64,000 bases of DNA from an uncultured Chloroflexia bacterium (GTDB lineage: Bacteria > Chloroflexota > Limnocylindria > Limnocylindrales > CSP1-4), in assembly GCA_963734995.1 (NCBI GenBank), contig CAVTJD010000004.1, positions 23,910-87,909 on the forward strand, given 5' to 3'. The notes under the pieces were generated by a model that ran no database searches, was not told where the DNA came from, and worked only from the letters and a program-made list of their open reading frames with translations. The position numbers were made by a program, and so were the translations under genes. This document shows positions 12,990 through 26,231 of this stretch, one piece after another (position 1 is the stretch's first letter; each line of letters begins with the position of its first letter).

Positions 12990-13074
12990 TGGTGGGCCGG
13001 GGCAGAATCGAACTGCCACAGCCGAAGGCGAGGGTTTTACAGACCCTTGGGCTCACCACCTGCCCAACCGACCC
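12990..13074 (-). tRNA. tRNA-Tyr (anticodon GTA), long variable arm
   Basis: Reverse complement folds as GGGTCGG acceptor / D arm / anticodon loop CTGTAAA / long variable arm / GGCAG-TTCGATT-CTGCC T arm / CCA end. Confidence 0.85.
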
Positions 13075-13163: not shown

Positions 13164-13239
<76 letters not shown>

Positions 13240-13366: not shown

Positions 13367-13395
13367 CTTGACGAATAGAACATATGTTCTATTAT
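13367..13395 (+). promoter_or_regulatory. sigma-70-like promoter (TTGACG-17-TATTAT) with embedded LexA (Cheo-type) box TAGAACATATGTTCTA
   Basis: Perfect 16-bp palindrome AGAAC-N4-GTTCT matching Gram-positive LexA consensus CGAACRNRYGTTCG, sited between -35 and -10, immediately upstream of imuA'. Confidence 0.75.
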
Positions 13396-13405
13396 GGGAC
13401 GTCCG

Positions 13406-14635
13406 ATGGCCCGATCATCCGACGTATCCGAAGCGCTCTCGAGGCTCCAGGCACGCTGGGGACCGGCAGCCCTCCGACGGGGCGGAGAGATGGGTCTGGC
13501 GGTCGAAGGCGCCCTCGCTCGAGCACCGATGCCGGCCGAGTCCGCGGCGGACGAGGCGATGGTGCCGGCCACCATGCCGATCACGCCTGTGCGCGTCAGG
13601 CCCGGGCGTCGGACCGAGGAGCCCGATGGCCGGGTCATCTCGACCGGGTTCGCCGCGCTGGATGCCCTGCTCGGGCCGGGCGGGCTTCCGCGTTCGGCCA
13701 CCGTGGCGTTCCGTGGGGGTGCCTCGTCGGGCAAGACCACGGTGGCGTTGCGGGTGGTTGCCGAGGCGCAGGCAACCGGAGCGATCGTCGCCTGGCTGGA
13801 TCTCGCCCGTGCCTTCGATGCGGTGGAGGCGGTCTCCCGTGGCGTCCGCCTGGAGTGGCTCGTCGTGCTCACCCCGGTCGATCTCGAGGAGGGGCTGTCG
13901 CTGGCCGCGGCGTTGCTCGCTGCCCGGACGGTCGACCTGCTGGTCATGGATCTTCCGGATGGACGGGCCACGTCGCTCGCAGGGTCGCGAGTGGGCGATC
14001 GCCCGGCCCGGCTGGCGGCGCTGGCCAGGCGGGCCGGCGCGCTGCTCCTGCTGGTGGAGCCAAGCACCGTGGGTGCCGATCTCGGCGCTGCGCTCCGGGA
14101 GGCGAGCGGGCTGCGACTGGAGCTGACGCAGCTGGGCTGGATCCGGCTCGGCCGGGACGTGGTCGGACGGCGTAGCGCGGTGACGGTGGCCAGAGACAGG
14201 CACGGTCCACCGGGCCGTCGTGCCGAGCTCGAGATCCTGTACGCGGAGGGCGGCGACCGGGATGCGTGCCTGATGCGAGACGAGCTGCTCGATGGCCGGC
14301 CATCGGGCGTCCCGCCGGGGATCGCCGCCATCTCCCCACCGTTCTCCGACCTGAAAGGCCCCCCTCCATCGGCCGATACCCATGCGTCTGCTCCACCTGG
14401 TCTGGCCGCACCTCCCGCTCCGTCTCGCCCGATCCCGTCTCGAGTCCCAGGACGCCAACGGCACCTCCACCTCGTGGCCACCCGGCCCGGTCGTCCTCGG
14501 TGGGCAACCCTGGACGGAGGGGATGGTGGTCGACGCAGATCCGCTCGCCAGGGCGCTCGGTGTGCGTCGCGGGATCCCTCTCGGGGACGCCCACCGGCTC
14601 GCGCCCGAGGCGACCTTCCTCAACCTCGCGCCTGA
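13406..14635 (+). CDS. imuA: ImuA' (RecA-fold/SulA-like mutasome component)
   Basis: RecA-like P-loop region FRGGASSGKTTVALRVVAEAQATGAIVAWLDLARAFD; LexA-box promoter; followed by imuB. Start set at the second ATG (13406), which gives a near-leaderless transcript; the first ATG (13394) overlaps the -10 hexamer. Confidence 0.7.
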   Translation: MARSSDVSEALSRLQARWGPAALRRGGEMGLAVEGALARAPMPAESAADEAMVPATMPITPVRVRPGRRTEEPDGRVISTGFAALDALLGPGGLPRSATVAFRGGASSGKTTVALRVVAEAQATGAIVAWLDLARAFDAVEAVSRGVRLEWLVVLTPVDLEEGLSLAAALLAARTVDLLVMDLPDGRATSLAGSRVGDRPARLAALARRAGALLLLVEPSTVGADLGAALREASGLRLELTQLGWIRLGRDVVGRRSAVTVARDRHGPPGRRAELEILYAEGGDRDACLMRDELLDGRPSGVPPGIAAISPPFSDLKGPPPSADTHASAPPGLAAPPAPSRPIPSRVPGRQRHLHLVATRPGRPRWATLDGGDGGRRRSARQGARCASRDPSRGRPPARARGDLPQPRA

Positions 14636-15674
14636 CGCGGATCGGGACGCCGTCGAAGCCGCCTGCGAGCGGCTGGTTGCGTTCAGCCCGGGGATCGTCG
14701 GGACGAGTGATGTCAGCGACCCGAGCTACGGGCGGATCGGGGTTCAGATCGATGGGCTGACCCGCCTGTGGGGAGTCGAGGAGACGCTCGTTGCCAGGAT
14801 GGCCGAGGCGCTGGCACCGATCCTGCCCGGCCCACCCCGGGCGGGGATCGCCGGGACCGGCTTCGCCGCGAGCGTGGCCGCTGCCCATGCGCGCGAGGGG
14901 GACCGGCCGATCCTCGTACCACCCGGTGATGACGGTCGCTACCTCGCTCCGTTCCCGGCCCGTCTCCTGACCCGGGATCCAGACGTTCGGGCCAGGCTCG
15001 CCAGGTTCGGGCTGCGGACGATCGGCTCGGTGGCGGCCCTGCCTCGGTCCGCCCTGGTCGCGCGTTTCGGCGACGAAGGTGCCCGGCTGCATGCGCGTGC
15101 CACGGGCGAGGAGACCGAGCGGTTCCGGCCCCGTCGTGCCGCCGAGCGGATGGCGCTCGCCCTGCCCCTCGAGCCACCGGTAGCAGGCCTCGAGGCGGTG
15201 CGGTTCGTGCTTCGCCGGCTCGCGGCGACGCTTTCGGATCAGCTGCGAGCTCGAGGTCGGGCGGCGGCAATGGCCCGACTCGTCGTCACCTGTGACCTCG
15301 CTTTCGCGCGTGCCGGGACGCCGGCCGAGGTTCGCGTCGAGCATCGTCTCCCGGAGGCGACGGCGGATGCCGAGGCCATCGAGCGTCTGCTGTTTGCCAG
15401 GCTGGAGCGGACACCACCGCCGGCGCCGGTCACACGCCTGGAGCTGGAGCTCGGCATGGTCGAGCCGGCATCAGGGCAACAGCTGTCGCTGTTCACGCCA
15501 CAGGCGGCACGAGGCGCCCGGCTGGGCTGGCAGCTCGCCCGCCTGGCGATCGTATTCGGGGCTGACCGGGTGCATCGGGTGGAGCTGGCCGATCCCGAGG
15601 CCATCGTCACCGAGGCTCGTTGGCGCTGGGTGCCGGTCTCGGGTGCGGTGGCCGGGGAGGAAGACCAGGCATGA
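14382..15674 (+). CDS. imuB: ImuB (catalytically inactive Y-family polymerase-like mutasome scaffold)
   Basis: N-terminus MRLLHLVWPHLPL and VVDADPLARALGVRRGIPLGDAHRLAPEATFL match DinB/ImuB family; lacks obvious catalytic acidic triad context; downstream of imuA'. Confidence 0.75.
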   Translation: MRLLHLVWPHLPLRLARSRLESQDANGTSTSWPPGPVVLGGQPWTEGMVVDADPLARALGVRRGIPLGDAHRLAPEATFLNLAPDADRDAVEAACERLVAFSPGIVGTSDVSDPSYGRIGVQIDGLTRLWGVEETLVARMAEALAPILPGPPRAGIAGTGFAASVAAAHAREGDRPILVPPGDDGRYLAPFPARLLTRDPDVRARLARFGLRTIGSVAALPRSALVARFGDEGARLHARATGEETERFRPRRAAERMALALPLEPPVAGLEAVRFVLRRLAATLSDQLRARGRAAAMARLVVTCDLAFARAGTPAEVRVEHRLPEATADAEAIERLLFARLERTPPPAPVTRLELELGMVEPASGQQLSLFTPQAARGARLGWQLARLAIVFGADRVHRVELADPEAIVTEARWRWVPVSGAVAGEEDQA

Positions 15675-15919
15675 CGCGGTTCCTGCGTGAGCATCCGGCG
15701 ATCGAACCCGAGCTGGATGACCGTGGCCGGCTGATCGCGATCCGCTGGAATGGCCGCCGTGAGCCGGTCGAGGTGTGCAACCGCTGGCGGGTCGATGAGT
15801 CCTGGTGGCGGCAGCCGATCGCGCGCGACTACTTCAAGGTCGTGGGCCAGAGCTGGCTCGCGCTCGTGTATCTGGATCGGGTGGCCGGGACATGGCACCT
15901 GGAGCGGTTCTACGACTGA
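15671..15919 (+). CDS. small Trp-rich hypothetical protein translationally coupled to imuB
   Basis: ATGA overlap with imuB stop; 82 aa, 6 Trp (IRWNGRR, NRWRVDESWWRQ, GTWHLERFYD); no known motif recognised. Confidence 0.5.
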   Translation: MTRFLREHPAIEPELDDRGRLIAIRWNGRREPVEVCNRWRVDESWWRQPIARDYFKVVGQSWLALVYLDRVAGTWHLERFYD

Positions 15920-16074
15920 GCGGCGGCCGCGCACGGATCCGCTTGTCGGGCGAACCTCGCGGGGATCCGGCATGTCCAGCCGCGATCGATGGCGGCGACC
16001 GGTCGGATGTCTGGCGGCACCTGGCGCAGGCGACGCTCAGCCTTGGCTGAGCCGGAGCGAACCTCGATCACCCG

Positions 16075-16182
16075 TCAACGCGTGACAGGTTGGCCGAGCG
16101 CGATCGACGTGACGAGCAGGACCAGGAACAGGCCCACCAACAGGAACAGTGCGTCCAGGTCACGAGGCCGAGTCGTCTGCAT
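16075..16182 (-). CDS. small single-TM hydrophobic peptide (35 aa)
   Basis: MQTTRPRDLDALFLLVGLFLVLLVTSIALGQPVTR; paralogous to peptide at 16355..16453. Confidence 0.35.
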   Translation of the reverse strand: MQTTRPRDLDALFLLVGLFLVLLVTSIALGQPVTR

Positions 16183-16354
16183 CGCCGGTGCGTCCCCCAT
16201 CTCCATGACCGGTCCCGGCCGGTCGCCGGCAGCATAGACGTCCAAGCCGGATCCTGTGTTGCGCTCGCGTCAACATCCCGTTGCGTGGCCGCAGCGCCGT
16301 CACACCCGATGTCATCGGGGCAGGTTTCGCGGCGAAGCCGGCGCGAGGCGGACG

Positions 16355-16453
16355 TCAGCCCGGAAGAGCGGCCACCACGAGCAGGACGAGGAGCACGAGC
16401 AGGGCGGCGACCAGCAGGCCAGCCCCGATCACGTCGCGCCGCGTCAATTCCAT
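16355..16453 (-). CDS. small single-TM hydrophobic peptide (32 aa)
   Basis: MELTRRDVIGAGLLVAALLVLLVLLVVAALPG; shares M-x-(T)-TR-(P)RD-[LV] N-terminus and Leu/Val TM core with 16075..16182. Confidence 0.35.
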   Translation of the reverse strand: MELTRRDVIGAGLLVAALLVLLVLLVVAALPG

Positions 16454-16474
16454 CGTCTGAGATCTCCTTGGTCG

Positions 16475-17068
16475 CTAGCCGCCGGCTCCGGCGCAACCGG
16501 CACCGTACAGCACCGTGATCATCGTCGATTCGCCCATCGGGCGGAAGGTCAGCTGGATCCGGCATTCGGGAACATCGCTTTGCGTATCCAGCACCCGGCT
16601 GCCGTCCTCGAGCGGATCCGAGAGGTCGACCGAGCTGTATCCCGCCGCCTCGAGTGCATCCCGGTACCAGGCCGCGACATCATCCACCGATTGCGAGGTC
16701 AGCAACGCATCGCTGACCGGTTCGGCCGGCGGCTCGGCGGGCTCTGCGCCCGGAAGCCGTGGGAAGCTGTCGGGGACCGCATCGAGGATTGCGCCCCAGT
16801 CCGTCTGCGTGACGGGGATACGTGTGGCGGGTGGTCCAGGTGCCGTCGATACGCCCCCGGGCACGGCCGTCGGCTCGGGAGCCAAGCTGCGGGCGTCGGA
16901 CGGGGTCACCGATGGGCCTGCCGCGGTGGTCGGGATCGGCCGCGCCGTGGTGGCATCGGAGCCACAGGCGCCAACCGTGATCGCGAGTGCTGCCGCGAGC
17001 ACCACGACCGAGAGGGACCGGGGAGATCGCCAGCAGATCGATCGCAGAACTCGTGTCACGCTCGCCAT
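16475..17068 (-). CDS. hypothetical secreted lipoprotein (Pro/Thr/Ala-rich)
   Basis: Signal peptide + lipobox MASVTRVLRS...VVVLAAALAITVGACGS; C-terminal globular segment DWGAILDAVPDSF...YRDALEAAGY. Confidence 0.5.
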   Translation of the reverse strand: MASVTRVLRSICWRSPRSLSVVVLAAALAITVGACGSDATTARPIPTTAAGPSVTPSDARSLAPEPTAVPGGVSTAPGPPATRIPVTQTDWGAILDAVPDSFPRLPGAEPAEPPAEPVSDALLTSQSVDDVAAWYRDALEAAGYSSVDLSDPLEDGSRVLDTQSDVPECRIQLTFRPMGESTMITVLYGAGCAGAGG

Positions 17069-17215
17069 CGTAACCGGCGCCGGATGGAGCACGGTGAACG
17101 GCTCTCGTGTCCCCGGCCTGCCCAGGGTCCGGGAAAGGTCGACGGGCGCCATCGCAACGCCGTCGCCATCAGGTCCGCCCCGGCGACGTCCACGTCGGCC
17201 GGAACGGTGGTGTCG

Positions 17216-17353
17216 TCACACAGCGGCTTCGACCATCGCCGGCAGCAGGACCAGGACCAGGCCCATGACGAGCGCGATGGCGACCACCCGCAGCAGGAGA
17301 TCGACGAGGATGCGGCGCGAGGGTCGTCGGACCGGGTCGGCAATCACGCGCAT
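17216..17353 (-). CDS. small single-TM hydrophobic peptide (45 aa)
   Basis: MRVIADPVRRPSRRILVDLLLRVVAIALVMGLVLVLLPAMVEAAV; third member of the small-peptide set; divergent from dnaE2. Confidence 0.3.
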   Translation of the reverse strand: MRVIADPVRRPSRRILVDLLLRVVAIALVMGLVLVLLPAMVEAAV

Positions 17354-17424: not shown

Positions 17425-17438
17425 CGAACGGATGTTCT
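17425..17438 (+). promoter_or_regulatory. LexA (Cheo-type) box CGAACGGATGTTCT upstream of dnaE2
   Basis: Matches CGAACRNRYGTTYC exactly; lies between TTCCGA (-35-like) and TACACT (-10-like); same half-sites as imuA' box. Confidence 0.7.
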
Positions 17439-22640: not shown

Positions 22641-25600
22641 ATGAGCCATGCCCGGATCGCGGCGGCGGCCGCGATGTCACTCGTCCTGCTCATGGCGTCG
22701 AGCGCGGTGGCGACGCCCGACACGCCGCTCACGACGGTCGAGCCCGCCTCCGTGGTCGACTGGCCGGTATCGACTGGGCTCCTGGTGGCCGAGGTCGTCA
22801 CGGGGGGCGCATCCGCATCTGACGAATATGTGGAGCTGACCAACGCGTCGACGGAGCCACTCGACCTGCTGGGGCTGGAGGTGGTGTACGTCACCGCGAC
22901 CGGCTCGACGGTCACGCGCAAGGCGGTCTGGGACAGCTCGCTCATGGTGGGACCGGGAAGACACCTGCTGTTGGCGAACGCGTCGGGCATGTTCGCCGCG
23001 GCCGCCGACGCGACGTACTCGGGCGGGTTTGCCGCCACCGGTGGGGCGATCGTGCTCCGATCCGTGGGCGGAGCCCCGATCGACGCCGTCGGCTGGGGAA
23101 CCGCCGCGAACGCGTTCGTCGAAGGGGCCGCCGCTCCCGCTCCCGACCCGGGAAGCTCCATCGAGCGCCGACCGGGCGGCACGGCGGGCAACACGATCGA
23201 CAGCAACGACAATGCGGCTGACTTCATCGCCAATCCCGAGCCGGAGGGTCGCAACCTGGCGGCCGACCCGCAGCCGCAACCCACGCCGACGCCGACACCG
23301 TCCCCGGCGCCTTCGGCAACCCTGACCCCATCGCCATCGCCGTCGCTCACGCCCGCGCCGACCGCCACGCCCGCGCCGTCGCTCACGCCCACGCCGACCG
23401 CGACCGCCACGCCGGCGCCAACCGAGTCGGTGTCCCCGTCCCCCAGCGCAACACCGTCGCCGACACCGCATCCCTCACCAACTCCGGCACCCACGGCGTC
23501 GCCGTCGCTCACGCCTGAGCCGTCGAGTGTTCCGTCGCCCAGCCCGGCTCCCACGCCCACCCCGGCGTCGGTCACCGCCATCTCTGTTGCGCGCGGTCTC
23601 GCCGACGGGTCGGACGCGACCATCCAGGGTGTCCTGACCACGTCGCTCGGAGCCCTCGAATCGGGCCGCGCCGGCTTCGTCCAGGACGCGACCGGCGGGA
23701 TCGCCCTCTACCTCGACGCGCCGTTCTCGAGCCCGATCGAGGAGGGAGCCATCGTCACGGCCTCCGGAACGGTCGGCAGCCGCTACGGCCAGCGCACGCT
23801 CCGCGTGACGACGACGTCGGTCGTCGTCGTCGGGACGGCCGAGCTTCCGGCTGCGGTCATGGTCGCGACGGGGTCCGCGACCGAACCTCTGGAAGGCCTG
23901 CGGCTCGAGGTGCGCGGAACAGTGACCGATGCGCCCTCGTCTCTCAGCGACGGCGTCGGGCTCAACGTCGATGACGGATCGGGCACGCTCAGGGTCGTCG
24001 TGGCCCCTGACGCGCTCGGCGGGCTCAGCCCGGCGCCGGGCATGATCGTTCGGGCGCAGGGTCCGCTCGGTCAGCGTGACAGCACCGGCTCCGGAACCGC
24101 CGGCTATCGGCTCTATGCGACTCTGCCCGGCGAGCTCGAGCTGAGCGCGCCCGAGCCCACACCCACATCGCCCCCATCGCCCTCGCCGTCGCCCGCGGCG
24201 AGCCCGAGCCCAAGCCCCACGCCGACCCCGAGCCCGACCCCCGCGCCAACGCCCGCGCCAACGCCCTCGATCACCCCCACGCCGGCCACGATCCACGCCG
24301 CGCGGACCGAGCCCGTCGGCACCCGGGTGACCGTCCGGGGCGTGGTGATCGCACAGAACGGTCGCCTGGGAACGCCACCCCTGTTCGCGATCGCGGACGC
24401 CACCGGGGGCATCGTTGTCCGGCTGCCTGATGGCGTGCCCGCTGCTGCCCGAGGGACGCTGGTCGAGGTCCGCGGCCCGATCGCCGACCCGTACGGCCAG
24501 ACCGAGCTCCGGCCCGGCGACGACGGCATCACCGTGCTCGGATCGGCCGACCTCCCGTCGCCGCTGGTGCTCGAGGCAGGCGGCGCCGGCGAGGACACCG
24601 AGGGACGTCTCGCGACGATCCACGGTGCCATCGCCACCTCGGCGACCCGCGCCACGAGCGGCGATCTCACGTTCACGATCACCGGTGACGACGGGGTCAC
24701 GCTCACGATCCGCGCGGACGCGTCTGCCGGCCTCGACAAGGCGACGTTCCGGAAAGGGCTCGATGGCACCTTCACGGGCGTGATCGGCCAGCGAGCGTCG
24801 CGCAAGGGAAGGCTCGACGGCTATCGGCTGTGGCTCCGCGACGCTCACGACGTCGAGCTGGCGTCGGCACCCGCGCCGTCCGACACGTCTCCGTCACCGT
24901 CGCCATCGTCGACGGATTCGGCGGCTGTCTCCACCGTCGCGGCCGCGCGGATCCGGGAGGGTCACAGGGTCACGGTCGAGGGTGTCCTGACGGTCGACCG
25001 AACGCTGCTCGACGCGACCGGCCGGCGGACGATCGTCGAGGACGCCAGCGGAGCGATCGAGGTCTACCTGTCCACGTCCGACGATTCGATCCACGCCGGC
25101 GAGGAGGTGCGGGTGACGGGGGTCGTCGGGCGGGCCTATGGCGCACCGCGCCTGAAGGCCGATGAGATCCGGGTGCTCGGCGCGCGTCAGCCGGCTGCGC
25201 ACGTGCTTCGCGGCCGGCCGAGCGCCGCGAACGAGTGGGACCTGGTCCGCGTCAGCGGAACGATCACCGATGTTCATCGCGACGGAGATCGATGGCTGGC
25301 CGAGCTCGACATCGGGGGCGGGAAGCTGCTCGTCCAGGGCCTCCCGGGAAGCTCGATCCCGTCGACGGCCGTGATCGAGGGCCGTCCGGCAACGATCACC
25401 GGGATCGTGAAACGACCCTATCCGACGGCAACCGACCGCCGCTTCTCCATTGTTCCGCGCGGACCGTCGGACATCGCTCTTGGACCAGCCGGACCGGGCA
25501 CCGGGGCCGCCGCGGGTGGCTCGTCAGTCGCCGGCGCGCCACAGGCGGTCCTCGCGATGGGCGGCGACCTGGCGCAGGCCGGTGCTCCCGACGTCGATCT

Positions 25601-26231
25601 GCGTGACCTGGCCAGCTACCTCGGCAAGCACGTTCGGGTCGGTGGGTTGGTCACCCGGAGCGCCACCGACGGGTTCGACCTCGATGATGGCACGGCGACC
25701 CGACGGGTCGTGCTGACGGGTTCGGCGATGGAGCTCGCCGGCTCCCTCGTGCCCGGCGATGCCCTCAACGCGACCGGCGTGCCGGAGTCGAGGCAGGGAA
25801 TCGTGCTGGTGGTCGGGGACGCATCGTCCATCGAGCTGGCCGGGGACTTGGGTGGCGGCTCGGCGATCGACGAGGGAGGGTCTCCAGGCGCGACGGCGGA
25901 CATGGTCACTGCCGGTGGCGCATCGGGCACGGCCGTCAGCACGGCGGCGGTCGGCAACGTTGCGTCCACGCCGATGGCGGCCATGGTCGGTGGCGCGCTG
26001 CTGCTGATCGTCATGACGTCGCTGGGCATGACGGCGGCATACCGACGCCGCGCGGAGCGACGCCTCCGCGCCCGGATCTCGGACCGTCTGGCGACAGTGG
26101 TGCGCGGCACGGCAGGGACCGACCAGGTCGCCGCTCCGGCGCCCACGGCGGTGGCATCGGCCGACGAAACCGCGCCGGCCGGCCACGGAGGGGTCGGTCT
26201 GCAGGCGCAGATCAATCGTGAATTTGCTTGA
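22641..26231 (+). CDS. large surface-anchored protein: signal peptide, Lamin-tail domain, Pro/Thr linkers, four OB-fold (tRNA_anti-like) repeats, C-terminal TM anchor
   Basis: Signal peptide [24 protein letters not shown]; LTD-like block [16 protein letters not shown]...AVGWG; four modules with OB pattern ([28 protein letters not shown]; [20 protein letters not shown]; etc.); TM helix [22 protein letters not shown] followed by RRRAERRLR. Confidence 0.7.

Follow-up and report, generated by a model that had tools for sequence, protein, structure and literature searches.

The window analysed here, a 64-kb stretch of DNA (70.7% guanine plus cytosine (G+C) overall) from an uncultured Chloroflexota bacterium, holds a group of four genes on the minus strand that are placed antisense between imuA-imuB-orf82 and dnaE2, with all flanking genes on the plus strand. 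Read along the minus strand these are p45, a lipoprotein gene, p32 and p35, where p45, p32 and p35 are short open reading frames (ORFs) for hydrophobic micro-proteins. The original prediction, made from the letters of the window, had placed four minus-strand ORFs between imuB and dnaE2 with the micro-proteins flanking the lipoprotein, and this layout is confirmed. Among the 240 small ORFs (28–70 aa) in the window, a charged N-terminus followed by an uncharged 18-residue hydrophobic stretch is found in p32 and p35 only, and the same filter gave no matches in 30 Markov-1 random sequences of the same composition. p45 fails the strict form of the filter because proline and charged residues lie close to its helix.

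Related loci were collected by a scan of one genome per species, which gave 37 loci, all from Chloroflexota; counts given below are over 38 or 37 loci. Gene order and strand are identical in these 37 species-level Limnocylindria-type genomes and in metagenome contigs, and the micro-proteins are conserved as peptides in the orthologous regions, which had been named beforehand as the point on which the original prediction could fail. Contigs with lipoprotein homologues at 63–69% identity carry dnaE2(−), p45-like(+), lipoprotein(+), p32(+), p35(+), an 82-aa ORF(−) and imuB(−), and gene callers already give products of 43, 32 and 35 aa on them. One side of the group is occupied by orf82-imuB-imuA in 37/37 loci, and the other by dnaE2 in most. 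Searches of six-frame translations with profile hidden Markov models (HMMs) recovered p35 in 37/38 loci and p32 and p45 in 36/38 each, in every case on the same strand as the lipoprotein; where p45 was missed (L018 and L022), the contig is cut upstream. p32 has been lost in L016 and L017 and is absent from the divergent lineage L044–L046, and L030 has a deletion of the p35 coding sequence that spares its promoter and flanking motifs.

The length of the small ORFs is strongly preserved, with exactly 35 codons for p35 in 36 loci and 32 codons for p32 in 28 loci. For all three, nucleotide diversity is highest at codon position 3, and the proposed frame is the only stop-free frame and has the lowest ratio of nonsynonymous to synonymous substitution (dN/dS, Nei-Gojobori) of the six. 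Over all available loci, dN/dS is 0.37 for p35, 0.52 for p32 and 0.62 for p45; over the same 17 genomes the values are 0.39, 0.47 and 0.56, to be compared with 0.39 for the C-terminal domain of the lipoprotein and 0.13 for orf82. p35 is the best conserved of the three micro-proteins, and its value equals that of the lipoprotein domain. The low G+C content at second codon positions (GC2) of the small ORFs is a consequence of their leucine and valine content, and is therefore not independent evidence of coding. Plotted by position, conservation forms islands at the ORFs and at short motifs upstream of them, and falls to near zero in the spacer between p32 and the P2 motif described below (16275–16350). 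A p35 profile search returned 529 database proteins at E ≤ 1, and 116 clusters at 50% identity were obtained when 1.84 billion cluster representatives were searched exhaustively with an HMM. Nearly all of these clusters are 27–91 aa long with the match at the C-terminal end, which marks p35 as a stand-alone family. The most divergent members have 34–36 aa, retain MQT...RD...G(S/A)P at ~45% identity, and likewise adjoin a convergent 82-aa ORF and imuB. On these comparative grounds, p45, the lipoprotein gene, p32 and p35 are conserved coding genes under purifying selection.

As for their architecture, p35, p32 and p45 share a short basic N-terminus, one helix and few residues beyond it, and each is predicted to span the membrane once with the N-terminus in the cytoplasm and the tail on the extracytoplasmic side. 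The cores had been described as made of leucine and valine only; they are hydrophobic and dominated by these residues, but not exclusively composed of them. The consensus of p45 is MIAxxxxxPxRRxALELLLRAAAIALAxxLILGLLPAIAEAAx. Outside the helix, p35 conserves Gln2, Arg5, Arg7, Asp8, Gly30 and Pro32, and p32 conserves Glu2 and, in at least 90% of members, Pro31; Arg20, Leu35 and Pro36 are conserved in p45. Conservation of such non-helix residues suggests specific contacts rather than generic insertion into the membrane. A shared TR(P)RD motif does occur in the p32 and p35 of this genome, but it is not a family trait, as the p32 family begins with the consensus ME[PL]xxRD. Nor are the three peptides paralogous as first proposed. 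In profile-profile comparison (hhalign), p35 and p32 align with 78% probability over 18 columns that cover the hydrophobic helix only, and p45 matches neither p35 (7.6%) nor p32 (2.6%), so that by this measure they are three separate, unrelated families. p45, p32, p35 and orf82 have no family match in Pfam, NCBIfam or PDB sequences. A role of p32 as a twin-arginine translocation (Tat) signal peptide was considered and rejected: the scores fall short of the cut-offs for Pfam TAT_signal (15.1 bits against 22.7) and TIGR01409 (13.6 against 16.7), the arginine pair is not conserved (KTRD, KTSD, TSRH), and the ORF ends after its 32 codons in the 28 loci counted above.

Two of the short motifs upstream of the ORFs, P1 before p45 and P2 before p35 (Table 1), have the form of promoters for an extracytoplasmic function (ECF) sigma factor, i.e., a GnAAC −35 block and a CGTC(T) −10 block, separated by a fixed, non-conserved spacer of 16–17 nt, with a gene just downstream. 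Across the family, P1 reads cGCAACC(a/g)-N-gCGTCT and P2 reads CGCAACA-N-GGCGTCT. The strict pattern GCAAC-N17-CGTC is present at P1 in 32/38 loci and at P2 in 32/38 loci, with one background match elsewhere in 620 kb, and P1 and P2 are the only two matches in the 64-kb window. At P1, in-frame stops and a 1-nt indel distinguish the loci, which shows that this motif is non-coding. Validated promoters of Streptomyces coelicolor sigE are closely similar, with the cwg operon promoter of the form CGCAACC-N-CGTCTT (CGCAACCTGG...CGT-CGTCTT), another reading CGCAACCAAAG...GGTCTA, and that of the target hrdD reading GGCAACC...CGTCTT (PMC6767563). A relaxed ECF-like motif at 23916–23942 lies inside a 1196-aa ORF (22641–26231, plus strand) and probably occurs there by chance. 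This ORF has a signal-like N-terminus, long linkers rich in Pro, Thr, Ser and Ala, and a C-terminal hydrophobic anchor, and probably encodes a large surface protein.

The lipoprotein gene is preceded by a different motif, the −10-like hexamer P3, which follows the family pattern TA[CG][CG]AT in nearly all of 31 listed loci and is not accompanied by a Shine-Dalgarno sequence; the ATG or GTG that follows it opens the 'M-R-...' signal peptide. Judged by their spacing, CGTCT-N7/8-GTG for p45 and TA[CG][CG]AT-N6-9-ATG/GTG for the lipoprotein gene, both without a Shine-Dalgarno sequence, the p45 mRNA is probably leaderless, and the same pattern suggests a leaderless lipoprotein mRNA. The ATG of p32 follows a Shine-Dalgarno sequence (AAGGAG/GAGGAG) at a distance of 7–10 nt. 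Between the lipoprotein stop codon and p32 there are 21–27 nt in nearly every locus with both ends called (L015 has 38 nt), and p32 is, on this arrangement, probably translationally linked to the lipoprotein gene. p35 has a GGGGGA Shine-Dalgarno sequence after a leader hairpin and appears to form its own transcription unit.

These motifs bear on the gene models. The conserved start of p45 is the GTG at 17347, which keeps a constant spacing to the P1 −10 block, has no Shine-Dalgarno sequence and gives 43 aa, whereas the ATG two codons upstream at 17353, from which the 45-aa product was first derived, is kept in about half of the loci and lies only 1–2 nt past the −10 block. The ORF itself stands, but its product is most likely the 43-aa form. 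The lipoprotein start in the window is probably the GTG three codons inside the annotated ATG. A longer lipoprotein (225 aa, 'MAPVDL...') was rejected: the conserved stretch upstream forms an RNA hairpin that carries compensatory changes, it contains indels of lengths not divisible by three, and in L006 an in-frame stop (TAG) falls within the P3 hexamer, so that translation cannot begin farther upstream. Longer forms of p35 (43–62 aa, 'MLPATGR...' or 'MEMGDAPA...') were also discarded, since the extension switches frame from locus to locus and runs into the P2 −10 block and the hairpin. Peptides of this kind had been expected to be unannotated. This holds for p45, which was not found as either the 45-aa or the 43-aa form in a collection of ~15 billion predicted proteins, but not for p32 and p35, which the source assembly already calls as hypothetical proteins (p35 in a 43-aa form).

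Table 1. Positions in the window of the four genes, their associated motifs and the neighbouring mutagenesis genes
Feature	Position	Strand	Description
p45	17216-17353 as first placed; 17216-17347 with GTG start	minus	
Lipoprotein	16475-17068 (ATG 17068, 197 aa, annotated) or 16475-17059 (GTG 17059, 194 aa)	minus	
p32	16355-16453	minus	ORF, MELTRRDVIGAGLLVAALLVLLVLLVVAALPG
p35	16075-16182	minus	ORF, MQTTRPRDLDALFLLVGLFLVLLVTSIALGQPVTR
P1	17356..17382	minus	ECF-sigma-type motif GCAACC-N16-CGTCT; −10 block ends 7-8 nt before p45 GTG
P3	17067..17072	minus	−10-like hexamer TACGAT; 6-9 nt before lipoprotein start codon
P2	16236..16262	minus	ECF-sigma-type motif GCAACA-N16-CGTCT; ~50 nt before p35
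hp2 hairpin	17137..17167	minus	GGCGACGGxCG / loop UUGCGAUGG / CGxCCGUCGACC; p45-lipoprotein spacer
p35 leader hairpin	16207..16227	minus	GGC GACCGG / loop / CCGGTC; 5' end of leader
Distal element	15990..16004		GACCGGTCGCCGCCA (minus-strand reading); downstream of p35
LexA box, dnaE2	17426..17437		Cheo-type, GAAC-N4-GTTC; before dnaE2; context, outside the four-gene group
LexA box, imuA	13378-13389		~5 nt before imuA
imuA	13394-14400	plus	RecA-like; Pfam RecA
imuB	14382-15674	plus	Pfam IMS/IMS_C
orf82	15671-15919	plus	82 aa; overlaps imuB stop by 4 nt
dnaE2	from GTG 17471	plus	Pfam PHP

The lipoprotein has a signal peptide, with basic n-region and hydrophobic h-region, that ends in a lipobox, VGAC in the window copy (...SLSVVVLAAALAITVGAC), the cysteine of which is kept in at least 90% of 44 homologues. 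A linker rich in Pro, Thr and Ala connects the lipobox to a conserved C-terminal α/β domain of ~110 aa with two invariant cysteines (Cys169 and Cys192 in the alignment). In an AlphaFold2 model, the C-terminal domain is predicted with confidence (pLDDT >90) and the Pro/Thr/Ala tether is disordered. The 209 homologues are all from Chloroflexota, 'Candidatus Limnocylindrales' metagenome-assembled genomes and metagenomes, and the precomputed Pfam label for the protein is PF27226 'AF_1845'.

The non-coding segments around these genes contain conserved RNA-like elements. Several conserved inverted repeats are present in the p45-lipoprotein spacer (17100–17215, minus strand), two of which, hp2 and hp4, are supported by compensatory changes in RNAalifold. 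For hp2, aligned over 24 loci, 12 pairs have compensatory changes, with pair 60–84 occurring as AU in nine loci, GC in nine and UA in two. hp4, a G+C-rich hairpin of 15 bp behind which most loci have a U/C-rich run, looks like a p45 terminator; it is deleted in the genome of the window. The p35 leader hairpin is kept in 27/37 loci, with a loop of variable length and compensatory stems such as GACCGAG/CTCGGTC, and leaves the Shine-Dalgarno sequence uncovered. A distal element, present 16–93 nt past the p35 stop codon in 28/37 loci, is complementary to the 5' arm of this hairpin (in the window, 15994–16002 to 16219–16227), so that p35 is bracketed by complementary covarying motifs (GGCGACCGG ... 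CCGGTCGCC), both of which remain in L030, which has no p35 coding sequence. Compensatory GC-to-AT changes between the distal element and the 5' arm are seen at two positions, one in L038 and L040 and another in L033. Minimum free energy and centroid folds of the putative p35 transcript of the window, 15985–16232 (minus strand), pair the two motifs, with an energy that is no better than that of shuffled sequences (z-score −0.33). The motif pair may represent a mini-mRNA paired from 5' to 3' end, belong to the 3' end of the opposing imuAB-orf82 transcript, or serve as a protein site. The possibility that GGCGACCGG is a dispersed repeat was dismissed (12 copies against 5.7 expected), and no Rfam family match was obtained anywhere in the region.

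Based on the promoter motifs, the architecture of the micro-proteins and the tethered lipoprotein, we propose that the region is a cell-envelope module under the control of an ECF sigma factor, consisting of three single-pass micro-proteins and a lipoprotein, a reading to which we give a probability of about 0.6. In this model, an envelope-stress-type ECF sigma factor, similar to sigE in S. coelicolor or sigM, sigW and sigX in Bacillus subtilis, would raise the levels of p45 and p35. Transcription from P1 would yield a leaderless p45 mRNA that in most genomes is ended by a strong hairpin, and P2 would give a short p35 mRNA with a 5' hairpin. P3, with its housekeeping-type TAnnAT −10 element, would produce a leaderless lipoprotein mRNA, to which p32 is coupled by way of its own Shine-Dalgarno sequence. 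Within the membrane, the micro-proteins would then serve as small binding partners or modulators, either for a larger envelope protein or for the lipoprotein, and not as pore-forming toxins, and their place inside a mutagenesis cassette would reflect long-lived synteny without shared SOS control.

A number of observations weigh against an ECF-controlled envelope module. All promoters and start sites are read from sequence, and the motif at P1 and P2 might conceivably represent a bipartite DNA site of a different type. No ECF sigma gene was detected in the 64-kb window by tblastn with Escherichia coli RpoE, an approximate query, which gave one weak match, inside a LepA-like gene. At 0.4–0.6, dN/dS is no more than moderate, and many substitutions can be tolerated in hydrophobic helices. 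The losses of p32 and of p35, each in a few genomes, imply that these are dispensable, accessory micro-proteins. In Foldseek searches against PDB, the fold matches of the lipoprotein are weak (best E 5e-3, identity ≤19%). Furthermore, all 37 loci and the most divergent lineage have the group next to orf82-imuB, whereas the tRNA neighbours of imuA, a tRNA pair or tRNA-Ala alone, are kept in 12/29 related loci checked, and such tight linkage may point to a functional connection with the mutagenesis genes. In the window these tRNA genes, tRNA-Tyr(gta) at 12990–13074 and tRNA-Ala(cgc) at 13164–13239 (minus strand), are located just upstream of imuA.

The LexA boxes bear on the question of SOS control. 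Gram-positive-type boxes (TAGAAC-N4-GTTCTA) are found ~5 nt before imuA in every locus and ~34 nt before dnaE2 wherever dnaE2 is nearby, so that the mutagenesis cassette is split into two separately LexA-controlled units. In 12–16 loci, dnaE2 lies 0.8–2 kb from p45, and its LexA box is equally far from p45 there; dnaE2 is not adjacent in two further loci. A HAD-hydrolase gene (FDMDGLLLD) on the dnaE2 strand lies between dnaE2 and p45 in L013 (2841–3653, minus) and L035 (2864–3679, minus), and is probably present in all 12–16 loci with a displaced dnaE2; it is absent from the window. Since the box stays with dnaE2 when dnaE2 is displaced from p45, it belongs to dnaE2. In the window the dnaE2 box is located ~75 nt upstream of p45 and ~44 nt upstream of the P1 −35 block. 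LexA control of p45 was therefore rejected, as the boxes track dnaE2 and imuA instead. A palindrome, CGAACG-N2-CGTTCG, in the p32-p35 spacer of L018 (752), L022 (682) and L023 (4666) matches a loose form of the LexA-box pattern and does not occur in the window. The most conserved gene of the neighbourhood is orf82, with 77–89% identity in all but a few loci; its 90% cluster has 340 members, all named 'hypothetical', and in this clade the imuA-imuB operon seems to include it as a third gene, so far undescribed.

A functional coupling of the module to the ImuA-ImuB-DnaE2 mutagenesis machinery would be compatible with its convergent position relative to orf82-imuB, which all genomes found have preserved even though other neighbours differ. 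It would also be compatible with the location of p35 between the covarying complementary motifs, one at the mRNA 5' end and the other in the gap facing orf82. If such a coupling exists, convergent or antisense RNA might allow ECF-driven transcription of p35 and SOS-driven transcription of the imuA-imuB-orf82 operon to control one another; alternatively, envelope stress might be connected by the micro-proteins with division arrest or with mutagenesis. We consider a coupling of either type improbable.

A further explanation is that the peptides are division inhibitors similar to SidA and DidA of Caulobacter; they would bind late divisome proteins such as FtsW/FtsI, pause division and be triggered by envelope stress, possibly in step with the damage genes. 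SidA is an inner-membrane protein of 29 aa and DidA a single-pass protein of 71 aa with short flanking domains; both are induced by DNA damage and act on the divisome (PMC4211646). p45, p32 and p35 have the same architecture with conserved juxtamembrane motifs, and the linkage to imuB-orf82 is tighter than general synteny. Against this explanation, there is no damage-responsive element before the module, three different peptides and a lipoprotein exceed the needs of a single inhibitor, and nothing at the locus points to the divisome; homology to SidA or DidA would not be expected. Division inhibition is also an unlikely function.

In the original prediction, the peptides were suggested to be possibly type I toxin-like. 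As toxins similar to TisB or DinQ, they would be DNA-damage-induced, membrane-depolarising and held in check by antisense RNA. Their size and hydrophobicity fit, as all three are below ~60 aa with one transmembrane helix; they adjoin SOS genes, with a LexA box at the short distance from p45 given above, and p35 has a structured 5' leader. The box does not follow p45 in the loci with a displaced dnaE2, so that no toxin promoter under LexA control is found, and in the window it is too far from the P1 −35 block for a position of repression. All conserved promoter motifs are on the sense strand, where P1 and P2 are of ECF type, and a sigma-70 consensus scan, which is crude and weak, found no promoter on either strand and so gave no sign that an antisense antitoxin is encoded. 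In p35, the Shine-Dalgarno sequence is not masked by the leader hairpin. Type I toxins are fast-evolving and patchily distributed, whereas these genes are single-copy, strictly syntenic and under purifying selection throughout the class, with conserved non-helix motifs (QTTRPRD, LGSP and LLPA..EA), and a lipoprotein gene is associated with two of the peptides. A toxin function is thus very unlikely, and the proposed functional link to the SOS response is not upheld, given that the LexA boxes go with dnaE2 and imuA and that the module has ECF-sigma-type promoters of its own.

That the small ORFs are untranslated, with conservation owed to DNA or RNA elements in a G+C-rich spacer where Leu/Val-rich ORFs arise easily, is extremely improbable: the spacers do carry conserved non-coding elements (P1, P2, the hairpins and the distal motif), the low GC2 is trivial, and peptide similarity alone is weak evidence, since even an out-of-frame translation of the lipoprotein gives 40–58% 'identity' in tblastn, but against it stand the third-position peak of variation, the minimum of dN/dS in the proposed frame with many stops in the other frames, ORF lengths, starts and stops that are fixed while adjoining spacers vary by up to ~125 nt, properly spaced Shine-Dalgarno motifs (p32 and p35), divergent p35 members that keep their length and motifs, and a p35 dN/dS that matches a bona fide lipoprotein domain.

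An envelope module of the kind preferred here, with conserved micro-proteins in an ECF-type regulon, would be of a kind already known, and nothing in it contradicts current understanding. What is new are three micro-protein families with comparative support, accompanied by a lipoprotein family that is uncharacterised, in a category of small membrane proteins that are routinely missed or left without a family. The analysis also gives a view of regulatory anatomy in a class of soil and freshwater Chloroflexota for which there is no genetics, and serves as a corrective, in that a hydrophobic peptide inside an SOS cassette need not be an SOS toxin. If the imuB linkage should turn out to be functional, envelope-stress signalling would be connected with induced mutagenesis.

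Among known systems, SidA and DidA of Caulobacter are likewise stress-induced, single-pass micro-proteins with short tails (PMC4211646), but are regulated by LexA or DriD, whereas an ECF-like promoter is predicted here. TisB and DinQ of E. coli are also small, hydrophobic, single-helix peptides encoded beside or inside damage-response loci. In contrast to these, the present genes have no conserved LexA control, no antisense partner detected in the crude scan and no leader that sequesters the Shine-Dalgarno sequence, and they are syntenic, single-copy, under purifying selection and linked to a lipoprotein gene.

For the lipoprotein, the best Foldseek match is Flpp3 (probability 1.0, template modelling (TM) score 0.45 on the target), and weak matches to the domain are given by PsbP/DcrB/LpqN(Mtc28)-like chains. 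With small envelope lipoproteins of the Flpp3, DcrB, LpqN and PsbP types it has in common a lipobox, a Pro-rich tether and a small α/β sandwich; it differs in that it belongs to a Pfam family of its own, PF27226, and all fold matches are weak.

With respect to regulation, the consensus of B. subtilis sigM, sigW and sigX is of a similar bipartite form. A further likeness is to the sigE regulon of S. coelicolor, where validated targets have the same xGCAAC(C)-N16/17-CGTCT form and spacing as P1 and P2, and where membrane-protein and lipoprotein targets are found alike, with about half of the regulon consisting of envelope proteins (PMC6767563). Compared with the sigE and sigM/W/X regulons, the predicted module differs in that two of its targets are family-less micro-proteins of 35–43 aa, in that the p45 and lipoprotein mRNAs are apparently leaderless, and in that it belongs to uncultured Chloroflexota.

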